A stretch of 61,259 nt of DNA, taken from the NCBI GenBank assembly GCA_964594665.1, contig CAZQNY010000005.1:1-61259 (forward strand), written 5' to 3'. The notes under the pieces are model-generated. The model was not told the DNA's origin. It searched no databases and was given only the letters and a program-made list of their open reading frames with translations. This stretch comes from an uncultured Bacteroidales bacterium. GTDB lineage: Bacteria; Bacteroidota; Bacteroidia; Bacteroidales; BM520. This document shows, one piece after another, positions 1,204 to 8,467 of the stretch (positions are counted from its first letter, which is position 1; every line of letters starts with the position of its first letter). Position numbers and translations under genes: made by a program.

Positions 1204-1241
1204 TTTATTTCTAATCTAAATAATTTTAATATTGATATATT

Positions 1242-1249
1242 TATATTTG
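1242..1249 (+). promoter_or_regulatory. Candidate -7 element (TATATTTG) for the polyferredoxin gene
   Basis: Exact TAnnTTTG in an AT-rich gap, 30 nt before the ATG at 1280. Confidence 0.5.
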
Positions 1250-1279: not shown

Positions 1280-3448
1280 ATGCAGGTAGACAGAAGAGAT
1301 TTTATAAGAGTAAGTTCGAAAATCGCCGTTGGTAGTGCGACGGTATCAACATTACCGGTACTTACCCAATGTACAAAGGCCGTTTTTGATGTTTATAACA
1401 TAGATCCTGATTTATGTATAGGATGCGGTGACTGCATTCCTGCGTGCTATTATAAGGCGCTGGAATTACCTGTGGAAACCCAATACACCATCGAGAAGGA
1501 GTCGTGTACAGAGTGCGGTAAATGCCGTGATGTTTGTCATGATGATGCCATTACAGTATGTGGCGTTGATTACCGGATTGATAAGGAGAAGTGTACGGAT
1601 TGTGGGCGATGTGTATCAACATGTGAGCATGATGCAATTAAAATAGCGTATGTTTATTACAATATTGACGAAGAGCTGTGCCGCGATTGTGGGAAGTGTG
1701 TGGATGTTTGTCCTGAGGATGCCATAAATATTAGTCCCGCGCTGCATAATATAATACCTGAGGCCTGCCGCGACTGCGGGCTGTGCGTCGATCGGTGTCC
1801 TGAGAATGCTATTCATGTCAGCGTTGTGGAGCATGATATAAACCGTGAAACATGCCGTGATTGTGGCGAATGTGTGCCACATTGTGAATACGGTGCCTTG
1901 AAAGTGTCGGTTGTAAACCATGCCATAAACAAGGAGCTGTGTACCGACTGTGGCGAGTGTATGCCAAAATGTGATGAGCATGCCATTAGTATTGCTGTAA
2001 AACAACATTATATCGACCGGCAGGAGTGTATTGATTGTGGTGAATGTGAAGAAAAGTGTGAAGAGAATGCCATAAATATATCTGTTATAACTCATGATAT
2101 AGACACAGATAATTGTATTGAGTGTGGATTATGCGCACCGCTATGCCCTGAAGAGGCTATTGAAATTTCCGTAAGCGATTACGATATAAACAGTAATTGT
2201 GTGGGTTGTGGCGAATGTAAGGAGGCCTGCGAAGAGGAGGGTGCTTCATGTATTTCCTGGGTGAATGGAATTAATTATTACATTGTGGGTTCAAACTGTC
2301 ATTGCGGTGGAAAGCCCTGTGTGTCGAATTGCCCGGAAAATGCTGTTACCATTGTAAATAACAAAGCCGTTATAAATCATGATTTGTGTACCCGTTGTGG
2401 AATCTGCGCCGATGTTTGTCCTAAAAGTGCTATTACTCCCTGTAAGGTTCAGATTGATCAAACCGATTGTATTCATTGTGGAGCCTGTTATGATGAATGT
2501 GAATACGATGCTGTTACCCGCCATGTTCCTCCCAATTATCATGAACCACGGATTAATACCGATAAATGTACCAACTGTAACGACTGTATAACGCTTGGTT
2601 TTTGCGATAAAGATGCTATTGTACGTACGATACCTTCCAATTACCAGGATCCGTTTATTGATATAAACAAGTGTACAAATTGCGGGGATTGCATTACAGA
2701 TAACTTTTGTGATAAGGGAGCCATAAAAGTGGAGGATCCGGTACCCTACCACGATCCGGTGATCCTTTCGGATAAATGTACCAACTGCGGTGATTGTATC
2801 GAAGACTCCTTCTGTCCGCATAATGCAATTTACAAGGATGTTCCTCAGGATTATCATGCTCCGTATATCGATAAATCGTTGTGTGTGAATTGCGATGAGT
2901 GCGTGCTCGACAATTATTGCCCCTATAGCAGTATTGAGCGAATTGTGCCTCCTGATTATAATCAGCCGTTTATTGATGAAGATGCCTGTACACAGTGTGA
3001 TGAGTGTGTGCGCGATGCATTTTGTGATTTTGATGCTATCGAAAAACAATACCCGTCGGGTTACCATGAGCCGGTCGTGGAGCTTAATAAGTGTACTAAA
3101 TGCGGTGAGTGTGTGACTTCCGAAGTGTGTGAATGGGATGCCATCAGTCGTGTGGAACCAACGGAATACCATGAGCCTTTTATCGACCAGGAGACCTGTA
3201 CCGATTGTGGAGATTGTTATAAAGCTGAGGTCTGTGAAGAGGGAGCTATTCTTAAGCTTTTGCCGGAGAATTATGTGTCACCCTTTATCGATAACGATAA
3301 ATGTACCAGTTGCGGCGACTGTTGGGGCTCTTGTGAAGATGATGCCCTGAAACGTGATCTTCATCGGGCTGTCATTGACCCGACGCTATGTATGGCCTGT
3401 GGAAAATGCGAAATCCTTTGTCCGGTAGGCGCTATTAGTGAGAAATGA
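1280..3448 (+). CDS. Tat-signal (probably lipoprotein) polyferredoxin with 22 ferredoxin-type four-Cys motifs
   Basis: N-terminal DRRDFIR twin-arginine motif and LTQC31; 14 CxxCxxCxxxC, 7 CxxCxxCxxxxxC and 1 CxCxxxxCxxxC motifs; 92 Cys in 722 aa by manual count. Confidence 0.9.
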   Translation: MQVDRRDFIRVSSKIAVGSATVSTLPVLTQCTKAVFDVYNIDPDLCIGCGDCIPACYYKALELPVETQYTIEKESCTECGKCRDVCHDDAITVCGVDYRIDKEKCTDCGRCVSTCEHDAIKIAYVYYNIDEELCRDCGKCVDVCPEDAINISPALHNIIPEACRDCGLCVDRCPENAIHVSVVEHDINRETCRDCGECVPHCEYGALKVSVVNHAINKELCTDCGECMPKCDEHAISIAVKQHYIDRQECIDCGECEEKCEENAINISVITHDIDTDNCIECGLCAPLCPEEAIEISVSDYDINSNCVGCGECKEACEEEGASCISWVNGINYYIVGSNCHCGGKPCVSNCPENAVTIVNNKAVINHDLCTRCGICADVCPKSAITPCKVQIDQTDCIHCGACYDECEYDAVTRHVPPNYHEPRINTDKCTNCNDCITLGFCDKDAIVRTIPSNYQDPFIDINKCTNCGDCITDNFCDKGAIKVEDPVPYHDPVILSDKCTNCGDCIEDSFCPHNAIYKDVPQDYHAPYIDKSLCVNCDECVLDNYCPYSSIERIVPPDYNQPFIDEDACTQCDECVRDAFCDFDAIEKQYPSGYHEPVVELNKCTKCGECVTSEVCEWDAISRVEPTEYHEPFIDQETCTDCGDCYKAEVCEEGAILKLLPENYVSPFIDNDKCTSCGDCWGSCEDDALKRDLHRAVIDPTLCMACGKCEILCPVGAISEK
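1505..2197 (+). repeat. Intragenic repeat block A: 8 units, about 29 aa (87 nt) period
   Basis: Motifs 2-9: CxxCGxCxxxC plus an 18-aa linker (17 aa in the last unit), consensus near xxxAIxVSVxxHxIxxEx. Confidence 0.85.
2468..3301 (+). repeat. Intragenic repeat block B: 8 units with 22-aa linkers, 35 aa (105 nt) period for motifs 14-20
   Basis: Motifs 13-20, linker consensus near xxDAIxRxxPxxYHxPFIDxxK; near-identical DNA gataaatgtaccaactg at about 2561 and 2771. Confidence 0.85.
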
Positions 3449-3493: not shown

Positions 3494-4840
3494 ATGAAGA
3501 ATATTTTTTTCACCGTGAGCATGCTCATTAGTGTAATGATTGTTTTTGCTCAGCAGGACACATCAGAAATACCGGATAATGTTAAAACCGGATGGACTTT
3601 TGGTGCCCTTCCGGCTATTGCCTATGATACTGATCTGGGTTTTAAATACGGGGCATTGGTAAACTTTTTTTATTATGGTGATGGCACTACTTATCCTAAG
3701 TACCTGCACAGTATTTATTATGAATTAAGCACGACAACCAAAGGCAGTACACTGAGCAAGTTTTATTATGATAGCGATCAGCTAATGAAGAATTATTATC
3801 TCCGTCTTACTGCATCTTTTAATTATATCAAAGACAGGGCTTTTGATTTTTATGGTTTTAATGGTTACAGGAGTTCGTATTATCCTGAGCTGGCAACAAC
3901 CGGTGATACGGAATATCTTTCGCGTATGTTTTATCGTCTGGAACGCAAAAGGACAAATGTAACGGTTGATTTTCAGGGCAGTATTACCAGTGAGCAGTTC
4001 AGATGGATTGCCGGTTTGGGATATTTTAGTTATAACCTGGGTTCTGTTGATATTGAGCGTTTGAATAAAGGAAAATCGGGAGGGGATTTATTGCCCTCCC
4101 AGGATACTGTTCCCGGGTTGTGGGAGAATTATTGTTCATGGGGTGTTATCCCGGAGCAAGAGCAGGAAGGGGGCTCATTCGACCTGTTTAAGCTGGGTGT
4201 TGTATACGATAGCCGGGATAATGAGGCAAACCCACAGCGAGGGGTTTGGACTGAGGCAATTTTATCCGCTTCTTCAGGTATGGTAGGTTCTTTTGGTAAG
4301 CCTTTTTCGAAATTCACCTTTACGCACCGCCAGTATTTTACCTTGTGGCCCGATCATCTTACATTTGCTTATCGTTTGGGCTATCAGCAAACACTGTCAG
4401 GGACATCACCGCATTATTTTGAGCCCTTCATGGCCAGTAGCTGGCCGGGGTCGGCATATAGTGAGGGCCTTGGAGGATCCAGAAGCCTGAGAGGCGTGAT
4501 GCGCAACCGCGTTGTGGGTAATGGAACTGGTTATGCTAATTTTGAACTCAGGTATAAAGTTTTTAAAACGGTTATTTTTAATCAAAACCTCTATATTGCG
4601 CTTACTCCGTTCCTTGATTTGGGCCGGGTTTTTGTCCCTTATGACATTGATACTGAAAATGTTCCTGCTGATGAATATAACAGGTGGTTTACTGATGAGG
4701 AAGGCTTGCATGCCGGAGCAGGAGCCGGTATTTATATAGCCCTTAATGAGAACTTTATTCTTGCCGTTAACCATGGGCGTGCATTGGATTCCCGTGATGG
4801 AACAGCAGGAACCTATATCAATATCGGATTCTTGTTTTAA
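3494..4840 (+). CDS. Omp85/BamA-TamA-family outer-membrane beta-barrel without POTRA domains
   Basis: Sec signal ending VFA/QQ; VYDSRDNEANPQRG and GLGGSRSLRG (loop-6 VRGF-like) motifs; C-terminal beta-signal YINIGFLF; barrel starts right after the signal. Confidence 0.8.
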   Translation: MKNIFFTVSMLISVMIVFAQQDTSEIPDNVKTGWTFGALPAIAYDTDLGFKYGALVNFFYYGDGTTYPKYLHSIYYELSTTTKGSTLSKFYYDSDQLMKNYYLRLTASFNYIKDRAFDFYGFNGYRSSYYPELATTGDTEYLSRMFYRLERKRTNVTVDFQGSITSEQFRWIAGLGYFSYNLGSVDIERLNKGKSGGDLLPSQDTVPGLWENYCSWGVIPEQEQEGGSFDLFKLGVVYDSRDNEANPQRGVWTEAILSASSGMVGSFGKPFSKFTFTHRQYFTLWPDHLTFAYRLGYQQTLSGTSPHYFEPFMASSWPGSAYSEGLGGSRSLRGVMRNRVVGNGTGYANFELRYKVFKTVIFNQNLYIALTPFLDLGRVFVPYDIDTENVPADEYNRWFTDEEGLHAGAGAGIYIALNENFILAVNHGRALDSRDGTAGTYINIGFLF

Positions 4841-4866: not shown

Positions 4867-5442
4867 ATGAAAATACGTAAGGCTTTTCGTTTTGAAGGAG
4901 CTCATATTGTGCGCAATTGCTCTTCGCAACGCTGTAAATATAATATCCACGGGCATTCCTATGGTGTTGAGGTTACTATTGAATCCAATCAGCTTGATAA
5001 TGGCTATATGGTTATGGATTTTATGTTACTTGATAAGGTAAAGCTGCTTGTGGATAGCTTTGATCATTCCTACAGTTTGTGGGATCGTGAATCGGATGAT
5101 TTTAAATCGTGGATCCATGCCAATACACAGCGCGTAGCCGAAATACCCATTTCTCCTTCTGCCGAAGGGTATGCACTTATGTTTTATTTTATTATTGATA
5201 AGATTTTGGAAAATACGGTTTTCCGTAATGGCGAGGGGCTCATCAGGCTGCATTCCGTTAAAGTACATGAAACAAGTACCGGTTTTGCTGAGGCCTTCAG
5301 GGAGGATCTTAATCTTGTAAAATTTACTCTTGAGGATATACAGTTTTCTTCACCTATTCATGATGAGTGGCCCTCAGACTGGTGGGGAGATTTAAAATCA
5401 GGTAAGAAATATAATAATCCGGAGGTGGAACAGAATCTGTAA
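4867..5442 (+). CDS. queD: 6-carboxy-5,6,7,8-tetrahydropterin synthase, long QueD2-like form
   Basis: FEGAHIVRNC, CKYNIHGHSY (Cx4HGH), FDHS and VHET motifs; next to queE and queF. Confidence 0.85.
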   Translation: MKIRKAFRFEGAHIVRNCSSQRCKYNIHGHSYGVEVTIESNQLDNGYMVMDFMLLDKVKLLVDSFDHSYSLWDRESDDFKSWIHANTQRVAEIPISPSAEGYALMFYFIIDKILENTVFRNGEGLIRLHSVKVHETSTGFAEAFREDLNLVKFTLEDIQFSSPIHDEWPSDWWGDLKSGKKYNNPEVEQNL

Positions 5443-6257
5443 TGCAGGGCAGTGAGAATGCCATATTGCGTTTGGCCCGGGAAGGGTTGTTCCCTGTTGT
5501 TGAGGACGGAAAGACGGCCTCTACAGGGTTGTCGGTTTCGGGCACATTGCAGGGTGAGGGTAAGCTGGCGGGAATGCCATCTCTTTTTCTTCGGCTTTTC
5601 GGCTGTAATCTTAACTGCCACTGGAGGCTGCCCGATGGAACTATCTCTCCGTGTGATACTCCTTCAGCAATTCAGTCGGGCATGCCCGTTACAAAGGTTC
5701 CGGCAGAGGATCTTGCCCGTCGTGTAGCCCAAAACCTTGGTGCCATTTCACATTTGGTTATTACCGGTGGTGAACCTGTTTTACAGGCTGACAGCCTGGT
5801 TGTTTTTCTGGATTATCTGCATCATTACAACCCTTTGGTGAAGGTAACCATGGAGACCAATGGTACACTTTTTTGTGAACCTCTTGCTCAACGGCTTAAC
5901 CTGGTAAGTATTAGTCCTAAACTTGACTCTGCTGATGCTATGGGCACAATGCACCGCGAAACAAGAATTAATACAGCTGTTTTGCAGGATTATCTTGATT
6001 ATCGAAATTCCAACCCTGCCATGGATTTGCAGCTTAAGTTTGTTATTGCTTCTGAAGAAGATGAAAAACAGGTGATCACAATTCTGGATACCCTACATGG
6101 TTATTCCGGCGATGATATTTTGTTAATGCCATTGGGCTCGGATACTGCAGAGCTTGCACAAACAACAACAACCGTTGTTGGTATGGCTATCCGCAATGGA
6201 TGGCGTTTTGCGCCCCGAATGCATATTGCCTTGTTTGGCTGTGGTGAAGGGGTATAA
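5442..6257 (+). CDS. queE: 7-carboxy-7-deazaguanine synthase (radical SAM) with expanded Cys motif
   Basis: TLQGEG, FLRLFGCNLNC...PCDT, VITGGEP, METNGT, SISPKL and LKFVI motifs; TAATG overlap with queD. Confidence 0.85.
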   Translation: MQGSENAILRLAREGLFPVVEDGKTASTGLSVSGTLQGEGKLAGMPSLFLRLFGCNLNCHWRLPDGTISPCDTPSAIQSGMPVTKVPAEDLARRVAQNLGAISHLVITGGEPVLQADSLVVFLDYLHHYNPLVKVTMETNGTLFCEPLAQRLNLVSISPKLDSADAMGTMHRETRINTAVLQDYLDYRNSNPAMDLQLKFVIASEEDEKQVITILDTLHGYSGDDILLMPLGSDTAELAQTTTTVVGMAIRNGWRFAPRMHIALFGCGEGV

Positions 6258-6268
6258 ATAATTGAATT

Positions 6269-7138
6269 ATGGAAGAAAACCTTACCCATCTGGGGCAACG
6301 TTCGGGATACCCTCAGCAGTATGACCCTTCAGTGCTGGAGCCTGTCCCGAGAAGCATTAATCGTACTGCATATGGCATCGACGACTCGACACCCGGTTTT
6401 CTGGGCTTTGATGTGTGGCATGCATGGGAAGTAAGTTTCCTCACCCGCAGGGGAATGCCTGTTGTCGGGGTGTTGAAGATTATTATCCCTCAAAGCAGTC
6501 CGTTTATTGTTGAAAGCAAGTCGTTGAAGCTATATCTTAACTCCTTTAATATGACCCGTATGGGGAATACAAAGCAGGAGGGTATTAAATTGCTTGTTGC
6601 AACGGTTCAGAATGACCTTGACAGGATCCTTGAATCCTTGCCTACAGTCGCTTTTTTCGACGGCCCTGATGAGGCAGAGAATGATTTTGTTCATTGGGAG
6701 CTTCTTGAGGAGAAGTATGATTTCTCGGATCTGGACTTTACACATTTTAATGAATCGCCGGAAGTATTGGTTGGGGACAATGGTATAAAAGCATTTCAGC
6801 TGGGCAGTCATTTATTACGTAGCAATTGCAAAGTTACGTTCCAGCCCGACTGGGGTTCGGTTTTTATAACCTTTAAGGGCGACAGGGGCCCGGCTCCGGA
6901 GGCCTTGATGCGCTATCTGGTGAGTTTCCGGAATGAGAATCATTTTCATGAAGAGGTATGTGAGATGATTTATAAACGCCTGTGGGATGCGTATCATCCT
7001 GAAGAACTGGGCGTGGCATGCCTTTACACACGCCGCGGAGGTATTGATATCTCTCCGGTCAGGGTTTCTTCTCCGGCATTGTTGCCCGATACGTTGCTTA
7101 GCCCCCGGGTACTTGGAAATAAACTCTACAGAGGTTAG
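6269..7138 (+). CDS. queF: NADPH-dependent preQ0 reductase, long two-domain form
   Basis: VESKSLKLYLNSF, LRSNCKVTFQPDWGSV (catalytic Cys/Asp), HFHEEVCE and YTRRGGIDI motifs. Confidence 0.92.
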   Translation: MEENLTHLGQRSGYPQQYDPSVLEPVPRSINRTAYGIDDSTPGFLGFDVWHAWEVSFLTRRGMPVVGVLKIIIPQSSPFIVESKSLKLYLNSFNMTRMGNTKQEGIKLLVATVQNDLDRILESLPTVAFFDGPDEAENDFVHWELLEEKYDFSDLDFTHFNESPEVLVGDNGIKAFQLGSHLLRSNCKVTFQPDWGSVFITFKGDRGPAPEALMRYLVSFRNENHFHEEVCEMIYKRLWDAYHPEELGVACLYTRRGGIDISPVRVSSPALLPDTLLSPRVLGNKLYRG

Positions 7139-7273
7139 TCCCTGATTTCTTTACAATTCCTTAATTTGCAAACGATTGCATACTTTTTTCCGTTTGCCCT
7201 GCACTTTTGTCCTGTAAATTTGTTTTATCTTAGTAAGCTCAAAAATTTTAATAATAATTAGAACAATATACTT

Positions 7274-8467
7274 ATGACTACAGCTGCGAATTATAATTTT
7301 AACGGCAAACGTGCTTTAATACGTGTTGATTTTAATGTTCCGCTTGATTCGGAATTCACCATAACCGATCCTACCCGTATAAATGCTGCATTACCAACCA
7401 TTAAAAAGGTGTTGGATGATGGTGGATCTGTGGTATTAATGTCACATCTGGGTCGCCCGAAACAAGGGCCGGAAGAGAAATTTTCCATGAAACATCTGTT
7501 GCCCTACCTTACAGAGGTAACAGGTGTGGAGGTAAAATTTGCTGATGATTGTGTTAGCGAAGAGTCGTTTGCATTATCTGCCGCATTGAAGCCGGGTGAG
7601 ATCCTTTTACTCAATAACCTGCGTTTTTATAAAGAAGAAACCAAAGGTGATGCTGATTTTGCTGAGAAACTTTCAAAACATGGCGATGTATATGTAAATG
7701 ATGCATTTGGGACGGCACACCGTGCTCATGCTTCCACAACCATTGTAGCGCAGTATTTTGCTGAAGGAGAAAAGATGTTTGGTTTGCTGCTGGGCAAAGA
7801 GATTGAGAGCATGGATAAAGTGCTGAAGGATTCACGCAGGCCATTTACGGCTATCCTCGGAGGCGCTAAAGTTTCCGGTAAGATACAGATTATCGAAAAT
7901 CTGCTTGATAAAGCTGATAATATAATTATTGGCGGTGGAATGATGTTTTCTTTTGTGAAAGCTACGGGTGGTGAAATCGGGAAATCGCTTGTAGAGGATG
8001 AATTTCTTGATCTTGCACGAAAAACATTGAAAATGGCAGAAGAAAAGAATGTTAACGTTTACATTCCTGTTGATGCTATAGAAGCCGATGCTTTTGATAA
8101 CAATGCCAACCGCAAAGAGGTTGCTGCTGATGCTATTGACAGTGAATGGATGGGTTTGGATATTGGAATAAAAAGCATGAAAGAGATTGAAGCAATCCTA
8201 ATGGCTTCGGAAACCATTCTCTGGAATGGCCCTATGGGTGTTTTTGAGATGGATAATTTTGCTGCAGGTACCCGTTTTGTTGCCGAAACAGTGGCTAAAG
8301 CAACAGCAAAAGGTGCTTTTTCACTCATTGGCGGTGGCGACAGCGTGGCAGCCATTAACAAGTATAACCTCAAAGATAAGGTAAGCTATGTTTCTACCGG
8401 TGGTGGAGCAATGCTTGAATATATTGAAGGAAAAGAACTTCCGGGTATTAAGGCAATACGTGGATAG
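7274..8467 (+). CDS. pgk: Phosphoglycerate kinase
   Basis: RVDFNVP, SHLGRP, YVNDAFGTAHRAHAS, WNGPMGVFE and STGGGA motifs. Confidence 0.98.
   Translation: MTTAANYNFNGKRALIRVDFNVPLDSEFTITDPTRINAALPTIKKVLDDGGSVVLMSHLGRPKQGPEEKFSMKHLLPYLTEVTGVEVKFADDCVSEESFALSAALKPGEILLLNNLRFYKEETKGDADFAEKLSKHGDVYVNDAFGTAHRAHASTTIVAQYFAEGEKMFGLLLGKEIESMDKVLKDSRRPFTAILGGAKVSGKIQIIENLLDKADNIIIGGGMMFSFVKATGGEIGKSLVEDEFLDLARKTLKMAEEKNVNVYIPVDAIEADAFDNNANRKEVAADAIDSEWMGLDIGIKSMKEIEAILMASETILWNGPMGVFEMDNFAAGTRFVAETVAKATAKGAFSLIGGGDSVAAINKYNLKDKVSYVSTGGGAMLEYIEGKELPGIKAIRG

Follow-up and report, generated by a model that had tools for sequence, protein, structure and literature searches.

Which of the 22 iron-sulfur cluster motifs in a single polypeptide share a ferredoxin domain? 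The question is raised by a gene on contig CAZQNY010000005.1 of an uncultured Bacteroidales bacterium (assembly GCA_964594665.1). The window, that is, the whole stretch of DNA that was analysed, has a length of 61,259 nucleotides. The gene is located at positions 1280..3448 on the forward strand, stop codon included, and encodes a polyferredoxin of 722 amino acids. The assignment is based on the list of open reading frames (ORFs), Pfam Fer4 and orthologues of the same length and layout. The protein probably carries its 22 clusters in 11 ferredoxin domains that are fully nested, each inserted into the next. New in this architecture would be a regular, unbranched nest, 4 to 11 levels deep, within one exported chain that has two arm-specific unit types in equal number.

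A regular-expression parse of the translated ORF located the motifs. The protein contains 92 cysteines, and 88 of these are within 22 four-cysteine motifs. Fourteen motifs are canonical CxxCxxCxxxC (motifs 1-10, 12, 13, 21 and 22). Motifs 1-10 form the N-arm (1415..2230, + strand) with a period of 29 residues, their first cysteines being residues 46, 76, 105, 134, 163, 192, 221, 250, 279 and 307. The linkers, counted from the last cysteine of one motif to the first cysteine of the next, comprise 19 residues once, 18 residues seven times and 17 residues once. The tip domain (2297..2419, +) consists of the atypical motif 11, CxCx4Cx3CP, at residues 340-351 (nucleotides (nt) 2297-2332), an 18-residue linker and motif 12 (nt 2387-2419); it was recognised by the motif parse and as a hairpin by AlphaFold2. 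The C-arm (2468..3421, +) has motifs 13-22, with eight linkers of 22 residues and a last one of 18 residues. Inside this arm, the seven motifs 14-20 (nt 2567-3235, +) have the spacing Cx2Cx2Cx5C and a period of 35 residues, with first cysteines at residues 430, 465, 500, 535, 570, 605 and 640. The canonical motifs 12, 13, 21 and 22 start with cysteines 370, 397, 675 and 704.

This parse reproduced exactly the linker series of a first-pass annotation (19; 18 seven times, 17; 22; 18; 16; 22 eight times; 18), with ten motifs flanking the central pair 11/12 on each side. The span given there, 1415..3421, extends from the first cysteine codon of motif 1 to the last cysteine codon of motif 22. The second block of that annotation stands with its eight 22-residue linkers and is refined in one respect: the Cx5C spacing is confined to the seven motifs 14-20.

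All 88 motif cysteines are conserved in an orthologue from a Marinilabiliales metagenome-assembled genome (L001), and the other two orthologous sequences keep the 22 motifs. Based on these motifs, the protein is predicted to bind 22 [4Fe-4S] clusters. Pfam Fer4 matched with E=7.3e-86 in 13 stretches, and the dicluster models Fer4_7, Fer4_9 and Fer4_21 matched with 8-12 stretches. The protein thus has the at least three pairs of CX2CX2CX3C-type motifs matching ferredoxin models that define polyferredoxins in the broad sense.

In the nested architecture, the chain would lay down the first halves of domains 1 to 10 as motifs 1-10. Motifs 11 and 12 would then form one contiguous domain at the tip, and the returning chain would add the second halves of domains 10 to 1 as motifs 13-22. 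Motif i would exchange its fourth cysteine with motif 23-i. Each junction between domains would consist of one N-arm linker of ~18 residues and one C-arm linker of ~22 residues. One linker of each class per junction predicts equal numbers of the two classes and only n+2+n forms in the family. Both termini, and hence an N-terminal membrane anchor or signal, would be located at one end, opposite to the tip. A roughly collinear arrangement of the domains would make the cluster chain ~25 nm long, because 22 clusters would lie in line at the usual spacing of ~10-13 Å. The shape would be a thin, straight rod, with a length close to the width of a Gram-negative periplasm.

Support for this architecture came from the relatives of the protein. 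A word-indexed protein search found only generic archaeal polyferredoxins with at most 29% identity. An exhaustive search of representatives together with a profile search revealed the family: 44 proteins at E<=2e-59 against the family profile, followed after a clear gap by family fragments and then by generic polyferredoxins. The family comprises ~50 sequence clusters from Bacteroidota (Prolixibacteraceae, Bacteroidales, Marinilabiliales), Gemmatimonadota and KSB1. Members that have a name in the sources are called '4Fe-4S binding protein' or 'ferredoxin' only, with one generic RnfB label. The Tat-signal hairpin polyferredoxins of bacteria of the FCB group appear to constitute an undescribed bacterial family, with the window protein as its extreme member (Tat, twin-arginine translocation). 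The closest relative of the window protein is P0033, a 5+2+5 form with 49% identity (E=5.5e-97).

All members share the centre of the protein: a degenerate four-cysteine motif with [WY]-x3-Y-x-V before it and AIT..KA.I after it. This tip motif precedes two canonical motifs that are separated by a 16-residue linker. The smallest members have 8 cysteine groups, and Cx5C motifs are confined to the C-arms. The window protein has the RRxF sequence, the invariant cysteine, the n+2+n layout and the four-cysteine tip with [WY]-x3-Y-x-V that characterise the family, and aligns over all core columns. When one genome per species was scanned, one orthologue was obtained, L001, with 76% identity, 723 amino acids and the same layout. 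A metagenome scan added two more contigs with an L001-type sequence, which is complete in one of them and truncated by the contig end in the other. It also added another species with the 10+2+10 layout, split over two contigs (L073+L072). The orthologues in the two other species (L001/L070; L073+L072) have 72-79% identity to the window protein and keep its layout.

Arm lengths were compared in 53 complete or near-complete sequences: besides the window protein and two orthologues, the set contains 50 representatives from the databases. The arms on either side of the tip pair are equal in 52 of them. The layout 3+2+3 accounts for 38 sequences, 4+2+4 for ten, 5+2+5 for two (P0033 and P0038) and 10+2+10 for three (window, L001/L070 and L073+L072). 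The first-pass annotation had proposed to compare the copy numbers of the two blocks in homologues and had named unequal numbers as the refuting outcome; apart from one sequence, the numbers agree from 3+3 to 10+10. Its expectation that both arms expand together was also borne out. In a rough neighbour-joining tree of 267 core columns, the expanded forms fall into three separate clades, which suggests at least three independent arm expansions. At least five step changes are implied (3 to 4 twice, 4 to 5, 3 to 5 and 5 to 10), each of them symmetric.

Each added unit brings a linker of ~18 residues into the N-arm and one of ~22 residues into the C-arm. The base pattern of linkers is 19 and 18 in the N-arm, the tip, and 16, 22 and 18 in the C-arm. 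The linker pairs (19 with 18), (18 with 22) repeated k times and (22 with 16) can be read as the two strands of successive domain junctions. This matches the mirrored linker classes that the first-pass annotation had pointed out. It is the family comparison, and not the single window sequence, that puts this symmetry beyond chance.

AlphaFold2 modelled the 3+2+3 protein P0040, with an alignment of 39 rows, at a predicted local distance difference test score (pLDDT) of 86.6 and a predicted TM-score (pTM) of 0.68. The 16 strands assigned by DSSP can be matched in mirror order. The two midpoints of a pair sum to 312-319, which is the expected pattern when antiparallel ladders link the two arms of a hairpin. 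The lengths of mirrored strands are 3/3, 2/2, 4/4, 2/2, 4/4, 5/4, 2/2 and 4/4. The order of the strands is short-long in the N-arm linkers and long-short in the last two C-arm linkers. A 4+4 beta-hairpin marks a contiguous ferredoxin domain. The tip linker forms the sole hairpin of this kind in both AlphaFold2 models, with pLDDT >90, so the tip domain of motifs 11 and 12 is, in the models, the only contiguous two-motif ferredoxin domain.

The window protein itself was modelled with a family alignment of 49 rows, at a mean pLDDT of 55 and a pTM of 0.43. The model is confident only where shorter homologues align: residues ~41-70, ~271-450 and 691-722 are at ~84 or above, and the signal region 1-40 is at 60-80. 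At the base of the hairpin, the strands 39-41/719-721, 61-62/698-699 and 68-71/690-693 form ladders that all sum to ~760. The central ladders sum to 715-721, and the gap to ~760 is the extra length of the C-arm units. An AlphaFold contact map had been suggested as a check of the hairpin; read from the DSSP strings, the models give a divided outcome, with mirror-ordered strands in P0040 and in the confident parts of the window protein, and a pLDDT <50 in the expanded arms of the latter.

Covariation is independent of the arm counts and points in the same direction. Mutual information (MI), corrected by the average product (APC), was calculated for 39 3+2+3 sequences and averaged over blocks of motif units. 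The nested matching (1-8, 2-7, 3-6, 4-5) ranks first among the 105 perfect matchings. Consecutive pairing ranks 27th and scored below nesting in 98% of the bootstrap replicates. The antidiagonal band i+j = 285-325 contains 42 of the top 150 MI pairs at least 25 positions apart, where 26.7 were expected (p=0.0013). No enrichment was seen for pairs inside sequential domains (p = 0.6-0.9). The top pairs 40-276, 92-224 and 132-185 lie on strand pairs of the model, and 125-186 lies beside one. Coevolution, another check named in the first-pass annotation, hence placed the nested matching at the top. The central proposal of that annotation, the pairing of motif i with motif 23-i, has gained support from arm counts, arm parity, the strand order in AlphaFold2 and covariation.

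Several observations weigh against full nesting. P0049 (262 amino acids) is a 3+2+2 form and the sole imbalance in the family; an exact deletion of one unit fuses its motifs 5 and 6 (alignment A1, columns 201-245). The source contig is only 1.5 kb long, so that a real variant, a pseudogene and an artefact of assembly are all conceivable. The AlphaFold2 topology was read indirectly, from the DSSP string. The expanded arms of the window model (residues 107-261 and 465-686) are below a pLDDT of 50, so nesting in these parts rests on counts and linker classes only. The covariation is modest, with ~38 effective sequences, z values of 1.0-4.0, kinship ignored and a weak pair 3-6. Unit similarity did not mirror between the arms of the window protein (N units 3-9 versus C units 20-14: r=0.18, p=0.26, exhaustive permutation), and a parallel mapping was no worse (r=0.27); this test is uninformative because the units are too diverged. 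The mirror correlation of conservation per unit in the three 10+2+10 species was not significant either (r=0.29, p=0.20). In the PDB, Foldseek found nothing that matches the P0040 model globally: the solved nested four-cluster proteins reach a TMt of 0.26-0.33, and the matches are confined to single ferredoxin domains (TMt up to 0.84, 1dur). This result was not taken against nesting because local 3Di alignments of repeat proteins can slip in register. Finally, a mutational route that lengthens both arms together was not identified.

An unlikely alternative is a partly nested, branched protein. The outer pairs and the tip would be nested, and some neighbours within the expanded arms would pair as side branches, comparable to the T-shaped FwdF and the branched MvhB. 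Branching is the rule in solved polyferredoxins: in MvhB, Fd2 and Fd6 sit between Fd1 and Fd5 (PMC13580544). The expanded window arms, with a pLDDT <50 in the model, leave space for such branches, and the best Foldseek matches, though poor, are to FwdF (TMq 0.22, rmsd ~20 Å). The numbers of units speak against it. Over the 3+2+3 core, each arm has gained seven units in the window protein and one in the 4+2+4 forms; both numbers are odd, so at least some of the added units have to pair across the arms. The extra linkers are all 18 residues long in the N-arm (one has 17) and all 22 in the C-arm, with a period of one unit, which argues for the same structural environment of every unit in an arm. 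A branched protein would also not require equal arms.

Beads on a string are very unlikely. In this arrangement, consecutive motifs would pair (1-2, 3-4 and so on to 21-22), and it would be coincidental that 18- and 22-residue linkers are equally numerous. Linkers of 16-22 residues are long enough for the connection within a domain, as established for clostridial ferredoxins. Fer4_7, Fer4_9 and Fer4_21 match consecutive motif pairs, and Foldseek matches 55-amino-acid ferredoxins over ~59 contiguous columns. The Pfam dicluster matches are expected for any run of motifs and are silent on the topology. Arm parity rules out a fixed sequential register. Given the conservation of the tip motif and of its flanks on either side, the same partner of the tip motif is expected everywhere, and sequential pairing needs a single arm parity. 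The family, however, has arms of 3 and 5 as well as arms of 4 and 10, and the conserved tip motif would have to switch its partner between close relatives. Equal arms throughout at least three independent expansions, the low covariation rank, the missing enrichment of same-domain pairs and the tip linker as the only modelled hairpin also contradict beads on a string. Within each arm of the window protein, units are more similar at distance 1 than at distance 2, without a two-unit period. The archaeal polyferredoxins in the same match list have irregular linkers or linkers that alternate between short and long.

The least probable readings are a non-reciprocal daisy chain, in which cluster k would be bound by three cysteines of motif k and by the fourth cysteine of motif k+1 and which fits the one-motif period of both arms, and a domain-swapped dimer or filament with intermolecular pairing, for which the Fe-S nanowires of oligomerising four-cluster subunits, AorA and HDCR HycB3/4 (PMC10413684), are a model; both leave the equal arms, the two arm-specific unit types, the conserved tip and the antidiagonal covariation unexplained, and the daisy chain would have unsatisfied ends and no precedent known to us.

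The repeats of the window gene are old. The DNA identity between units is 32-68% in the C-arm, 44-58% among the seven Cx5C units and 46-68% in the N-arm, and Tandem Repeats Finder reported no array inside the gene. The low identity and the missing array are the reasons for this view. Two antisense ORFs lie within the gene, 1616..2095 (-) with 159 amino acids and 2291..3172 (-) with 293 amino acids. Both have a high content of I, T, N, F and V; they are probably not genes but a consequence of the codon composition of the repeats.

The N-terminus points to export. The Tat signal region (1280..1372, +) starts with MQVDRRDFIRV..., continues with a hydrophobic stretch and ends with Cys31 (codon 1370-1372). 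In the alignment of 50 family sequences, R5, R6, F8 and C31 are invariant; RRDFIR corresponds to residues 5-10 of the window protein. The twin-arginine signal of NapG/DmsB-type proteins is thus present as a sequence motif. All full-length members have RRxF and the invariant cysteine ~15 residues ahead of motif 1. A TatA/B/E-family gene (L064, 4071-4253) is located directly downstream of P0033, the closest relative, which is consistent with an export of the family through the Tat system. Of the 50 members, 46 have a canonical lipobox, L-x-[SAG]-C. The long forms deviate from it: the window protein has VLTQ-C with glutamine at -1 (window 1358-1372, residues 27-31), and L001 has VLTK-C with lysine at this position. 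Because of these residues, the long forms may no longer be lipidated and may have another anchoring or processing.

The intergenic region upstream of the gene (window 1225-1249) is AT-rich, includes a short TTTATATA tandem and ends in TATATTTG. The latter is located at 1242..1249 (+), 31 nt before the ATG, and fits TAnnTTTG, the -7 promoter element of Bacteroidetes; TATATTTG is a putative promoter element.

Three extra cysteines lie outside the motifs: Cys94 (1559-1561), Cys324 (2249-2251) and Cys388 (2441-2443). C94 occurs only in 10+2+10 forms. C324, in the N-arm linker ahead of the tip, is present in 19 of the 50 family members. C388, in the C-arm linker past the tip, was found only in the clade of the window protein, L001 and P0033, always together with C324. 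The two may form a cross-arm disulfide or provide an extra ligand at the last junction. Their use as evidence for a contact between the arms was dropped: the co-occurrence is one evolutionary event in one clade and hence not independent evidence for the pairing.

Gene neighbourhoods of the shorter relatives suggest a function. In six of six shorter members examined, the polyferredoxin is the last gene of a four-gene cassette with a NapH-like gene two genes upstream (L064 2-4035; L065 3539-7023; L066 3348-6822; L067 2178-6527; L068 3188-6849; L069 1117-4895). The first gene codes for a secreted protein of ~125 amino acids with invariant Cys, His and Cys residues (e.g. L065 3539-3907, alignment A9). 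It has a signal peptide ending in A-C-E-I and the invariant sequences T-H-x-x-C and R-x-C-x-K-E-G-G, and had no family match in Pfam or NCBIfam; it may be a small metal- or cofactor-binding lipoprotein. The second gene encodes a NapH/NosR-like membrane ferredoxin (Pfam Fer4_5, E~1e-14) that scores 75-77 bits with TIGR02163, below the cut-off of 213. The product of the third gene has ~400-457 amino acids (e.g. L065 4779-5987, alignment A6), a signal peptide and a mature part starting with QWEC(R)S, and had no Pfam, NCBIfam or PDB sequence match. Its consensus ends in Phe, as outer-membrane barrels often do. In L068, two shorter genes with 311 and 131 amino acids replace it. Recurrent near the cassettes are TatA, an ArsP_1 permease, ApbE, TonB-dependent receptors, DUF2202 and an ECF sigma/FecR pair.

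Proteins of the NapH-like type are considered modular units of transmembrane electron transfer that serve extracytosolic redox partners (PMC8238504). The NapH-like neighbour in the shorter relatives suggests a periplasmic Fe-S wire that is fed by, or feeds, such a module. By this analogy, the family likely functions as a single-chain periplasmic electron wire, and in the shorter relatives, electrons are likely donated or accepted by the NapH-like membrane ferredoxin two genes upstream.

The genomic context of the window protein is different and weighs against this function for the long form. The NapH-like gene was not found in the 61-kb window by tblastn, the queries matching the polyferredoxin gene only, and the neighbours are housekeeping genes. 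Redox partners were found neither by tblastn of the window nor by Pfam in the next ten genes. The four-gene cassette was found neither in the window nor in the read part of the L001 contig. The window also had no Rfam match. The window and L001 have the gene order GSCFA, polyferredoxin, Omp85-like, QueD, QueE and QueF in common. A queuosine-precursor cluster at 4867-8467 of the window encodes a QueD-like PTPS protein, a radical-SAM QueE-like protein and a two-domain QueF. The start of the QueE-like gene overlaps the preceding stop codon by one base (5442), and phosphoglycerate kinase (Pgk) follows QueF, in the same order in L001.

The gene next to the polyferredoxin, 45 nt downstream on the same strand, codes for an outer-membrane barrel of the Omp85 family without POTRA domains (3494..4840, +; NCBIfam NF047779, 315 bits versus a cut-off of 200). 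It follows the polyferredoxin in all three 10+2+10 species. The N-terminus has a weak DUF5982 match. The Omp85-like family is often labelled BamA/TamA, and its role appears uncharacterised. It is ubiquitous in Bacteroidota (4609 hits at E<=1e-20), and its neighbours at other loci are unrelated. A common family and an adjacency kept only in three close species are weak evidence for a link between the two proteins. For these reasons, a porin-wire complex drawn from this neighbour is now speculation. The Omp85-like protein and the ~400-amino-acid cassette protein had no detectable homology (hhalign probability 5%).

A further step would make the 10+2+10 protein a cytochrome-free nanowire: one Tat-exported chain of ~25 nm that spans the periplasm and carries electrons from a NapH-like quinol dehydrogenase of the inner membrane towards the outer membrane or the surface of an anaerobic member of the Bacteroidota. 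This idea is tentative and rather unlikely. If it applies, evolution would have set the length of the wire like that of a ruler, and forms with 8, 10, 12 and 22 clusters would be graded wires. The cassette of the short forms, with a secreted Cys/His protein, a NapH-like protein, a possible barrel and a lipoprotein wire, would then be an Fe-S analogue of porin-cytochrome conduits.

As a single exported chain with 22 clusters, the window protein would extend the size range known for polyferredoxins by more than half and would be the longest single-chain iron-sulfur wire that we found reported. It would also reveal a design rule: one half-domain per arm is added at each step, the junctions are double-stranded and presumably stiff, and the termini stay together. 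A low-potential Fe-S wire would be placed in the cell envelope of Bacteroidota, for which we know of no characterised envelope-spanning electron conduit. The natural length variants with 8, 10, 12 and 22 clusters could be used to study how electron transfer depends on distance, where Tat export reaches its limits and how protein wires can be designed. Even with a modest biological role, the n+2+n rule is a clean and testable case of constrained repeat evolution.

How does the protein compare with known systems? Four-cluster subunits of the DmsB, NarH, FdnH, NrfC, HybA and NapG type follow the nested principle that is proposed here. In the NarH, FdnH, DmsB and NapG type, the cysteine groups I and IV and the groups II and III share clusters, a nest of two levels. 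Several of these subunits reach the periplasm by Tat export, and the partner of NapG is the membrane protein NapH; the shorter relatives of the window protein are encoded next to a NapH-like gene. The depth is different: exactly four cysteine groups in two fused ferredoxin domains and a depth of 2 in the four-cluster type compare with 22 groups and a proposed depth of 11 in the window protein. The latter also has an atypical tip motif, and its family has a lipobox. Of the membrane or catalytic partner genes that adjoin NapG/DmsB-type genes, a NapH-like gene was not found in the 61-kb window by tblastn but is present in all six shorter members examined, and the window gene has no gene for a catalytic partner subunit nearby. 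No NCBIfam model of the six four-cluster families was among the best 25 of 67 matches. The Nap-system models listed there score below their cut-offs (NapF 93 bits versus 102; NapH-type 94.7 versus 213).

The archaeal polyferredoxins MvhB/VhuB, FwdF/FmdF and EhaP/EhaQ/EhbK share many CX2CX2CX3C(P) motifs per chain and intramolecular cluster wires with the window protein. The best sequence matches in the PDB are MvhB (9sw6_G, E=3.1e-39) and FwdF (5t5i_F, E=1.4e-29). Ferredoxin domains inserted into other domains occur in archaeal polyferredoxins, and the electron paths of MvhB are branched (PMC13580544). Domain insertion as such was already presented as known in the first-pass annotation, in agreement with the solved MvhB (PMC13580544). 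Archaeal polyferredoxins have 6-14 clusters (PMC3087415) in three to seven modules (PMC13580544). They belong to cytoplasmic enzyme complexes of methanogens and have a branched or T-shaped structure, whereas the window protein is bacterial, of a lineage placed in Marinilabiliales (Bacteroidota), has a Tat signal and arranges 22 motifs with a regular one-motif period in two equal arms. The cut-offs of the archaeal families were not reached (FwdF NF042909, 132.6 bits versus 375; VhuB NF045874, 116.3 versus 600). Because the scores are below the curated cut-offs, the window protein is placed outside the FwdF, VhuB, NapF and NapH families, but would work like them. Its gene is located beside GSCFA, Omp85, QueD/E/F and Pgk genes and not in an mvh, fwd, eha or ehb operon of methanogens.

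MtrA-type decahaem proteins of porin-cytochrome conduits are, as established, elongated exported proteins with a linear chain of redox centres. Sequence and fold are not related, and the window protein comes without evidence of insertion into a barrel. MtrA-type proteins contain haem that is attached after Sec export, whereas Fe-S clusters are loaded in the cytoplasm before Tat export. Long continuous [4Fe-4S] chains that conduct over tens of nanometres are formed by the tungsten aldehyde oxidoreductase subunit AorA and by HycB3 and HycB4 of HDCR, as polymers of four-cluster subunits (PMC10413684). These nanowires are non-covalent cytoplasmic polymers decorated with enzymes; the window protein, in contrast, is a single, putatively exported polypeptide of comparable predicted length.

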